Positions 11,763 to 12,072 of a DNA stretch of 64,000 bases are shown piece by piece. Position 1 is the stretch's first letter; each line of letters begins with the position of its first letter. The notes under the pieces were generated by a model. That model was not told where the DNA came from. It saw nothing but the letters and a program-made list of their open reading frames with translations, and made no database searches. Origin of the DNA: Klebsiella phage RCIP0009. The stretch lies in the sequence record OR532803.1; one strand, written 5' to 3'. The position numbers and the translations under genes were made by a program.

Positions 11763-11796
11763 TAGTATAACCCAACGGGGATAATATTCAATAGGT

Positions 11797-11824
11797 GGAG
11801 TAGGGAAACTTACTCCATCTTTTA
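11797..11824 (+). terminator. Hairpin (7-bp stem TGGAGTA/TACTCCA) plus U-run after gene 24
   Basis: read directly. Confidence 0.45.
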
Positions 11825-11854
11825 ATAATAATTATAATTATAATTAATATTAAA

Positions 11855-12050
11855 TTAGATCTTGAATTTATAAATGATTTATGATAAAATTTATTAATTA
11901 TAATTATTATAGATCAAATAATTTTTGAAATCAAGTAAAAATAAATTTGATTTTATAAATTAGATCATGTATAATTATTCTTTTAATAATATATTATATT
12001 AGATCAATTTAAATTTGACTACAAATTAATATAGTATATTATAGATCAAC
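11855..12050. repeat. Five direct repeats of ttaTAGATCAa, each containing a Dam GATC site, in an ~300-bp region of ~85% AT. Spacings are 54, 51, 39 and 42 bp. Candidate origin or regulatory array upstream of uvsY.
   Basis: TAGATC at 11857, 11911, 11962, 12001 and 12043; embedded inverted AAATTTGA/TCAAATTT pieces. Confidence 0.6.
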
Positions 12051-12072
12051 TGGGTAAATTGGTGAGTATGTT

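Follow-up and report, generated by a model that had tools for sequence, protein, structure and literature searches.

Among T4-like phages, replication origins have, to our knowledge, been mapped in T4 itself only. Two of them, oriF and oriG, consist of a promoter plus an A+T-rich DNA unwinding element (DUE), a third, oriE, depends on an early promoter and carries 12-nt iterons, and all three sit where transcription switches strand (PMC3016281). T4 origins have no motif in common, and the rules by which one of them is chosen are still open (PMC3016281). In the present work we analysed the locus of oriF, or ori(uvsY), in Klebsiella phage RCIP0009 (record OR532803.1), namely the spacer between gp24 and uvsY. 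It occupies positions 11763-12072 of a stretch of 64,000 nucleotides, hereafter called the window. A first reading of this DNA by its letters alone (the sequence-only reading) had noticed there an AT-rich array of five Dam sites, and proposed either an oriF-like iteron origin or a promoter region responding to methylation.

The window belongs to a T4-like phage of the genus Slopekvirus (KP15/KP27/Matisse). It aligns over its whole length with KP15 (124,539-174,436, then 1-13,735), mostly at 97-99% identity, and 115 phage records match the 1.3 kb surrounding the spacer, at 95-99.5% identity. Genome-wide scans were done on the assembled full KP15 genome (174 kb), which is 98-99% identical along the window length. 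Genes of the window were called from open reading frames (ORFs) and from the annotation of related records. RB43, a member of the sister genus, has neither MotA nor the middle-promoter motif (PMC1524935), and KP15_4, which occupies the motA position in KP15, is SprT-like, so that a MotA-type origin promoter is unavailable to these phages.

Control regions rich in Dam sites (GATC) provide the second term of comparison. E. coli oriC has 13-mers (GATCTnTTnTTTT) and is sequestered by SeqA, and oriR of plasmid P1 has heptamers with Dam sites. In IS10, promoters pIN and pOUT are opposed, and the -10 of pIN contains a Dam site. At V. cholerae ori2, each iteron has a GATC that needs methylation for RctB binding (PMC6212839). 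Full-text searches returned no description of Slopekvirus origins, or of the islands reported below; in the KP15/KP27 genome paper, MEME was applied to 100 nt upstream of ORFs only, and neither GATC nor origins are mentioned.

Three AT-rich, GATC-dense islands

On the evidence of its sequence, the gp24-uvsY spacer is a cis-element made of several parts, and Slopekvirus genomes have, with this one, three paralogous islands that are AT-rich and dense in GATC. The AT-rich spacer of some 300 bp first described proved to be 310 bp long at 17.7% GC, with a core at 12% GC (11800-11999), and it is the sole long stretch below 22% GC within the 64 kb window. Its features are as follows (window positions):

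11796-11823, + strand: intrinsic terminator after gp24 (stem TGGAGTA 11796-11802, loop GGGAAACT, stem TACTCCA 11811-11817, tail TCTTTT)
11824-11855, unstranded: TAATTA/TAATAA microsatellite-like A/T tract, whose length differs among Slopekviruses
11856-11862, + strand: GATC site 1, TAGATCT, abutting the -35 of P1
11858-11934, unstranded: face-to-face promoter-pair unit of 77 bp, GATC-TTGAAT-N17-TAAAAT-(15 A/T)-ATTATA-GATC-N13-AATCAA
11862-11890, + strand: P1, sigma70-like promoter, TTGAAT-17-TAAAAT, with TG before the -10; predicted start ~11897
11906-11934, - strand: Pm, sigma70-like promoter, TTGATT-N12-TGATC-TATAAT; predicted start ~11899
11910-11916, + strand: GATC site 2, TAGATCA, abutting the -10 of Pm
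11947-11975, + strand: P2, sigma70-like promoter, TTGATT-17-TATAAT, the conserved uvsY promoter; predicted start ~11982
11961-11967, + strand: GATC site 3, TAGATCA, inside the P2 spacer; lost in phage Matisse (G>T)
12000-12006, + strand: GATC site 4, TAGATCA
12015-12042, + strand: P3, sigma70-like promoter, TTGACT-16-TATTAT, uvsY-proximal; predicted start ~12049
12042-12048, + strand: GATC site 5, TAGATCA, at the predicted start of P3

Between 11815 and 12050, five GATC are seen where 0.16 are expected from base composition, a local excess of about 30 fold, and none of 100,000 mononucleotide shuffles reached five (maximum 4). The unusual density of Dam sites pointed out by the sequence-only reading is thus confirmed. 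GATC is also over-represented in the window as a whole (384 versus 240 expected, about 1.6 fold), which is too small an effect to account for the local excess; TAGATCW is not enriched window-wide (13 seen, 14.5 expected), and the signal therefore lies in local clustering only. As a separate observation, such genome-wide over-representation of GATC (6.6 per kb in KP15) is unusual for the phage of a Dam+ host, which could be expected to avoid or ignore the site.

The five direct copies had been placed correctly to within 1 nt, all on the + strand. The long repeat ttaTAGATCAa had been overdrawn, as nothing longer than [A/T]TAGATC[A/T] is common to the five, and their spacing is irregular (54, 51, 39 and 42 bp). 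As for the inverted AAATTTGA/TCAAATTT elements also reported, AAATTTGA occurs twice on the same + strand (11943 and 12011), each copy being the A-tract plus -35 of a promoter-like site, and the inverted TCAAATTT copy is absent from the island.

The promoter-like sites give the spacer its architecture. P1, P2 and P3, all three rightward and able by position to serve uvsY, match the consensus at 9-10 of 12 positions, and with hexamers 16-18 bp apart and a hairpin/T-run upstream, the spacer has what is ordinarily expected of a sigma70 regulatory region. P3 stands 31 nt ahead of the uvsY ATG and has a promoter annotation in KP27, and the gp24 terminator is annotated at the same site in the KP27, Matisse and KP15 records. 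Pm reads away from uvsY, and the minus strand downstream of it has no gene. The predicted starts of P1 and Pm nearly coincide, so that an A/T-only core is common to both, and the DNA downstream of Pm and P1 is 93% A+T over about 45 bp. In Pm, TGATC directly adjoins TATAAT, and on the opposing P1 a GATC flanks the -35. Pm is in addition back-to-back with P2, 12 bp separating their -35 hexamers. No Mot box (TGCTTtA, at -30 in middle promoters) was found within 11763-12072, and no match to the late-promoter motif TATAAATA within the island, so that the idea of a late promoter was rejected. One exact TATAAATA match lies at 14874-14881 (- strand), some 30 nt ahead of the start of uvsW, and is consistent, by analogy, with late expression of UvsW as in T4, where this protein removes origin R-loops.

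When KP15 was scanned, four stretches only fell below 22% GC per 100 bp, and three of them are islands of 270-300 bp (KP15 positions):

31,811-32,110: island 1, rnh(-)/gp55(+) spacer, 9 GATC, 1 promoter pair
101,851-102,120: island 2, gene 3(-)/KP15_152(+) spacer, 8 GATC, 2 promoter pairs
136,321-136,620: island 3, gp24-uvsY spacer, 5 GATC, 1 promoter pair

Ranked by window, these three islands come first in the genome for GATC enrichment, and they are the only places where at least three TAGATC/GATCTA fall within 250 bp. Their nearest-neighbour duplex stability is also the lowest of the genome, at window sizes of 60, 100 and 200 bp. The uvsY island is the least stable of all, at -93.9 kcal/mol per 100 bp compared to a genome mean of -132.5 +/- 6.2, i.e. 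5-6 standard deviations below; no other 100-200 bp of the KP15 genome melt as easily as the DNA that the sequence-only reading had called easily melted.

The islands also concentrate promoters of a particular kind. All five copies of the 11-mer TGATCTATAAT, a point in favour of Pm, and all four cases of TTGNNN-N13-GATC-TATAAT in the KP15 genome fall in islands. Promoters of the strict form TTGANN-N17-TAWAAT number 15 genome-wide, 9 of them in islands, and 8 of these 9 are arranged face to face in four pairs, the two -10 hexamers of a pair being 13-16 A/T bases apart. The resulting unit of 71-74 bp, TTGAnn-N17-TAWAAT-(13-16 A/T)-ATWTTA-N17-nnTCAA, is found four times in the genome, each time in an island. 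Its geometry has been maintained although the unit sequences have diverged, and three of the four have TGATC directly against the TATAAT hexamer as well as the opposing -35. When the islands were simulated 5000 times with a first-order Markov model, no face-to-face pair arose, and the simulated island sets held about 0.1 promoters each, compared to the nine observed.

Elsewhere in the same phage, early promoters look different. The 17 annotated KP15 promoters consist of TTGAC, then a GC-rich stem-loop, then TATATT, with no GATC beside the -10, whereas the island promoters have A/T spacers. Sites annotated as 'putative middle promoter' in KP15 (e.g. 11136-11177, 55838-55875 and 154835-154873) also have the TTGAC/GC stem-loop/TATATT layout and overlap predicted terminators; by their sequence they look like promoter-stem-loop cassettes rather than MotA-type promoters.

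With these data, the iteron array proposed at first could be re-examined. In a classical iteron origin, a phage initiator would bind the five TAGATCA, possibly only if methylated as at V. cholerae ori2, and melt the adjoining AT DNA. Five same-strand GATC repeats in easily melted DNA agree with such a scheme, for which the methylated-GATC iterons of ori2 (PMC6212839) and the 12-nt iterons of T4 oriE (PMC3016281) are precedents. The repeats themselves argue otherwise: their core is 6-7 nt without extended consensus, their spacing is irregular, their orientation is mixed in islands 1 and 2, and one of the five was lost in Matisse. Moreover, no initiator gene of the Rep type was recognised next to the islands, uvsY.-2 having no informative family, and KP15_152 no Pfam match and only function-unknown PHROG families. 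We consider an iteron origin improbable.

There is nevertheless a likeness to oriC, P1 oriR and ori2. Several GATC lie in or beside an AT-rich, easily unwound region, a putative Dam enzyme is encoded, and GATCTA is read on one strand of each repeat. Unlike these origins (ori2 has 12-mer iterons), the island has no DnaA boxes, no recognised initiator of the RctB or RepA type and no iterons of 11-19 bp. It also differs from Dam-site-rich origins by its irregular spacing, by GATC placed on promoter hexamers, and by its host element, a lytic T4-like phage.

The same loci in T4 and in RB43-like phages

The positions of the islands were then compared to those of T4 origins. Island 3 stands directly upstream of uvsY, the locus of oriF. 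In T6, the gene order 33-dsbA-rnh(-)/34(+) indicates that KP15 island 1, directly upstream of rnh, occupies the place where T-evens start gene 34 (oriG = ori(34)). Finally, the order 57A-1-3-2-4(-)/53-5(+), with repEB/repEA inside gene 5, sets oriE at a distance of about 3-5 kb from where island 2 stands. The two major places at which KP15 transcription turns from minus to plus are islands 1 and 2, and the cumulative GC-skew of this genome has minima at 32 and 105 kb, near them.

The equivalence with oriF stated in the sequence-only reading holds for the position upstream of uvsY and not for the sequence: in T4 and T6, the spacer before uvsY is 66 bp long and contains a Mot box and, in T6, TATAAT, without AT island or GATC array. 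The resemblance between the island and oriF is one of position and predicted architecture, not of homology. As with oriF and oriG, the island is located at the uvsY promoter and a paralogous one at the rnh/gene 34 position, and a promoter with a sigma70-type -10 is followed by A+T-rich, easily melted DNA. Unlike them, the island has no Mot box, in phages without MotA; it extends over about 300 bp, compared to about 100 bp for a T4 minimal origin; it contains opposed promoter pairs and a GATC cluster, both absent from T4/T6; and the three islands share a motif, whereas T4 origins share none.

Within the genus, the island is almost unchanged in all Slopekviruses, as judged from alignments of 5 and 13 genomes, with indel columns at 11825-11838, in the A/T tract. 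The next relatives to have kept the gp24-uvsY order are RB43-like phages (Pseudotevenvirus) and two IMG/VR contigs, L013 and L014, their UvsY being 82-85% and 71-74% identical to that of the window, respectively. A metagenome scan with the UvsY alignment gave no additional lineages, and an IMG/VR scan with TGATCTATAATWWTTAT was uninformative, as it returned more than 120 unrelated AT-rich contigs. Lack of conservation of the repeats in related phages had been named as a refuting condition by the sequence-only reading, and the outcome is mixed: within Slopekvirus the repeats are kept, and in the sister genus a different three-copy element takes their place at the same loci.

This element is a palindrome of about 150 bp, which makes the spacer of RB43-like phages and of L013/L014 wholly different from that of the window. 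Its arms (GAGCGAAGCGA..ACGAACGAAGTGAGTG) are GC-rich, its centre is AT-rich and holds TATATATAGAG and TTTTTAACCA, and the whole folds as a long hairpin (z = -9.1). A change in one arm is compensated on the opposite arm (GCGAAGCG/CGCTTCGC versus GCGTAGCG/CGCTACGC). Copies were located at the following positions (numbered within each record):

L003, 2260-2440: palindrome copy
L009, 1265-1440: palindrome copy
L013, 1180-1330: palindrome copy
L014, 1185-1335: palindrome copy
L033, 5650-5850: palindrome copy
L043, 1620-1790: palindrome copy

A pattern scan gave 2-3 copies per RB43-like genome, in the rnh/gp55 spacer, directly upstream of gene 3 and in the gp24/uvsY spacer, which are the island loci of KP15. 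Matches to the core pattern outside RB43-like genomes (L031, L032, L034, L036, L039, L047 and L051) had no palindrome arms and were put down to chance. No trace of the palindrome was found in KP15, and the two element types never co-occur. The window island shows a modest excess of self-complementarity only (z = -2.6, compared to -9.1 for the RB43 element), and a cruciform was rejected in its case. In island 1, we observed that four GATC form an imperfect 29 bp palindrome around the perfect 12-mer GATCTATAGATC (KP15 31979-32006), between the divergent rnh and gp55 promoters, where RB43-like phages place theirs.

What is common to the two genera surrounds the element. Global alignment of the spacer with L013 and L009 is untrustworthy in such AT-rich DNA, and promoter-by-promoter correspondence was used instead. 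In RB43-like phages the palindrome is flanked by outward sigma70 promoters, at 11 of 12 consensus positions and with GATC in their spacers. The flanking promoters of L013/L014 score 9-10 of 12; the leftward one (9/12) has its GATC in L013 and has lost it in L014, and one of sequence TTGATT-TTATGTTTATTGATCTC-TATAAT is nearly identical to P2. Pm and P2 correspond to these flanking promoters, with 12 bp in place of the palindrome. In RB43-like phages and L013/L014 too, the leftward promoter at the uvsY locus is without a gene that it could serve. Between promoter and uvsY, L013 (1383-1493) and L014 (1389-1493) have in addition a small Cys-rich ORF that resembles a zinc ribbon (CxxC...CxxxxC) and that KP15- and RB43-like phages lack.

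From these comparisons, positions and predicted flanking promoters are conserved, and the element between or around them is genus-specific and multi-copy. The RB43-type palindrome shares with the islands the three loci, the outward promoters with GATC spacers and an AT-rich centre; it differs from them by its GC-rich arms, its potential for a hairpin or cruciform of about 150 bp, and the lack of a TAGATC array. Candidate roles for it are those of an origin, a cruciform or a small mobile element.

The last possibility has a bearing on the island, which might be non-functional or selfish DNA: an AT-rich remnant of a lost or replaced mobile palindrome of the RB43 type, or a tract for H-NS-like binding, with GATC as a by-product of promoter-unit duplication. 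The terminal inverted arms and three copies per genome of the RB43-type element are those of a small mobile element; aligned by eye to L013, the window spacer has an 'empty site' between two -35 hexamers; a duplication of about 90 bp is detectable inside the island; and no extra constraint on its sequence is seen within the genus. Against this stand the occupation of the same three loci by both genera, the strict geometry kept by four diverged units, the lack of any RB43-element trace in KP15, and a global spacer alignment that gave no clear result. Selfish or inert DNA appears to us a poor explanation.

Possible promoter control and Dam methylation, and the neighbouring genes

Could the islands be there for transcription only? 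Their promoters would then be of a class apart, driving genes counted as 'middle' in T4 (uvsY, rnh and gene 55) in a lineage devoid of MotA. The facing promoters would be mutually exclusive, and the methylation state (parental versus newly replicated DNA) or a GATC-binding protein would pick the promoter, timing uvsY, rnh and gp55 to replication. This is the main rival to the origin reading, and a possible one, though we remain doubtful that it is the whole explanation. It agrees with the near-consensus sigma70 promoters aiming at uvsY, rnh, gp55, gp3 and KP15_152, with TGATC on the -10 and opposing -35 in three units out of four, with GATC retained in the flanking-promoter spacers of RB43-like phages, with the presence of a Dam-family gene, and with the lack of MotA and middle-promoter motifs in RB43.

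IS10 is the precedent for such a switch: as in pIN/pOUT, the promoters face each other at short range and GATC touches the -10 of one partner. Starts are about 36 nt apart in IS10, compared to 1-4 nt in the islands; the unit, unlike IS10, occurs four times per genome inside AT islands of 270-300 bp, and the leftward promoter of the uvsY locus has no evident transposase or antisense target gene. Against a purely transcriptional role, Pm has no gene, yet is conserved in three lineages. Such a role also leaves unexplained some 300 bp of extreme AT content, making up the three least stable stretches of the genome, as well as the cruciform-capable palindrome of the sister genus between the same promoters, and the placement of GATC relative to P1, P2 and P3 is not uniform.

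The genes around the spacer, and the methyltransferase gene farther downstream, are the following (window positions):

8151-9719, + strand: gp23
9805-10440, + strand: SegD-like GIY-YIG endonuclease
10473-11762, + strand: gp24 (stop ends at 11762)
11763-12072, unstranded: gp24-uvsY spacer (island), 310 bp
12073-12492, + strand: uvsY, recombination mediator, served by P2 and P3; Shine-Dalgarno GGTGAG at 12061-12066
12492-12668, + strand: uvsY.-2
13102-13335, - strand: uvsW.1
13344-14843, - strand: uvsW
27155-28003, + strand: Dam-family (D12 class, PF02086, DPPY motif) N6-adenine DNA methyltransferase, which may modify the GATC sites in trans

The last gene agrees with the statement that the phage encodes Dam. 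From its PF02086 family we infer GATC specificity for the enzyme; the phage methyltransferase is named Dam methylase in PMC5219037. Of the earlier proposal of a promoter region with methylatable sites, what stands is GATC on core promoter elements together with this Dam-family gene, and what falls is the iteron reading attached to it.

Some other features of the neighbourhood were noted. The SegD-like gene, of the GIY-YIG homing endonuclease type, is inserted between gp23 and gp24, and is preceded by a second, short AT-rich stretch (9761-9860, 21% GC) with zero GATC. Between uvsY.-2 and uvsW.1, a relatively GC-rich gap of about 300 nt without ORF (12760-13070) is closed by a strong bidirectional terminator (13073-13100); it gave no Rfam or tRNA match and its fold is not significant (z = -0.75). 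Rfam and tRNA searches of the whole of 11500-13400 returned zero matches. In the record of phage vB_KleM_kp20 (PP993148.1), gp24 and a truncated uvsY are labelled 'replication origin binding protein', which is almost certainly an annotation artefact, carrying no origin evidence.

A candidate origin and its possible meaning

We tentatively favour reading the island as a promoter region for uvsY that is also an unwinding or origin element driven by transcription; in function it would be the counterpart of T4 oriF, possibly gated by Dam. Several lines of evidence argue for it. The local GATC excess, the AT-richness and the three least stable duplex stretches of the genome coincide. The four face-to-face pairs are all in islands, with none in 5000 simulations, and their promoters are unlike the usual stem-loop cassettes. 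Islands are at the uvsY and rnh/gene 34 positions and near that of gene 5/repEA, islands 1 and 2 being at strand switches, and the same three loci are marked by another three-copy element in RB43-like phages. Lastly, Pm has no gene to serve, and a leftward promoter is conserved nonetheless in RB43-like phages and L013/L014. With only three such islands, opposed promoter pairs, and adjoining genes that mark two mapped T4 origins, the island is a testable origin candidate, not a proven origin. By analogy, it is best classed as a variant of promoter-plus-unwinding-element origins and of Dam-site-rich control regions.

The events at such an origin might be as follows. Host RNA polymerase would open and transcribe the A/T core early in infection. 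Short transcripts, chiefly the gene-less leftward one from Pm, would promote persistent opening or an R-loop, and opening would be favoured by these transcripts and/or by negative supercoiling between the back-to-back Pm and P2. The phage replisome would then take the opened DNA as an origin, using it as primer or entry site. This would amount to an oriF analogue made with sigma70-type instead of MotA-type promoters. Methylation of TAGATC by the phage Dam-family enzyme and host Dam would plausibly tune promoter choice, or limit firing to one methylation state.

A number of points weigh against an origin of this kind. Promoter-like hexamers arise easily in AT-rich DNA, and the four units may be paralogous copies, which weakens the independence assumed in the simulations. 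It is usually G-rich RNA that favours R-loops, and not RNA made of A and U only, and cooperative SeqA binding needs GATC spacings of about 31 bp or less, which the 39-54 bp of the island exceed. No sequence homology of the island to T4 oriF was found. The match of island 2 to oriE is at the level of the neighbourhood only, in a different spacer, and the precise place of ori(34) in gene 34 is presumed. One GATC, site 3, is lost in Matisse. Finally, among 13 Slopekvirus genomes, 14 substitutions were counted over 310 bp, compared to 3.6-4% in flanking coding DNA, meaning no extra constraint on the island; at 97-99% identity within the genus, with spacer and coding DNA varying equally, this gives no signal for or against constraint.

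A broader version of the origin reading, rather unlikely in our opinion, is that Slopekviruses and RB43-like phages carry genus-specific, exchangeable 'origin cassettes' upstream of rnh, gene 3 and uvsY. The cassettes of Slopekviruses would be the opposed sigma70 promoter pairs, with their Dam sites, in an AT-rich tract that unwinds, and those of RB43-like phages the palindromes able to form cruciforms between outward promoters. Both would be the origins of T4-like phages devoid of MotA, in which Dam state would replace the silencing of MotA promoters as origin shut-off.

In this relative group of T4, the three islands are candidate elements recognisably related to one another and built on a defined unit, and the sister genus has another cassette at the same loci. 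If the islands are promoters only, they would still be an undescribed class, with opposed pairs and GATC at the -10, controlling uvsY, rnh and the late sigma factor gene. If the origin reading is true, the phage Dam-family methylase gains a possible role beyond anti-restriction, and the islands could reveal how T4-like phages lacking MotA start replication.

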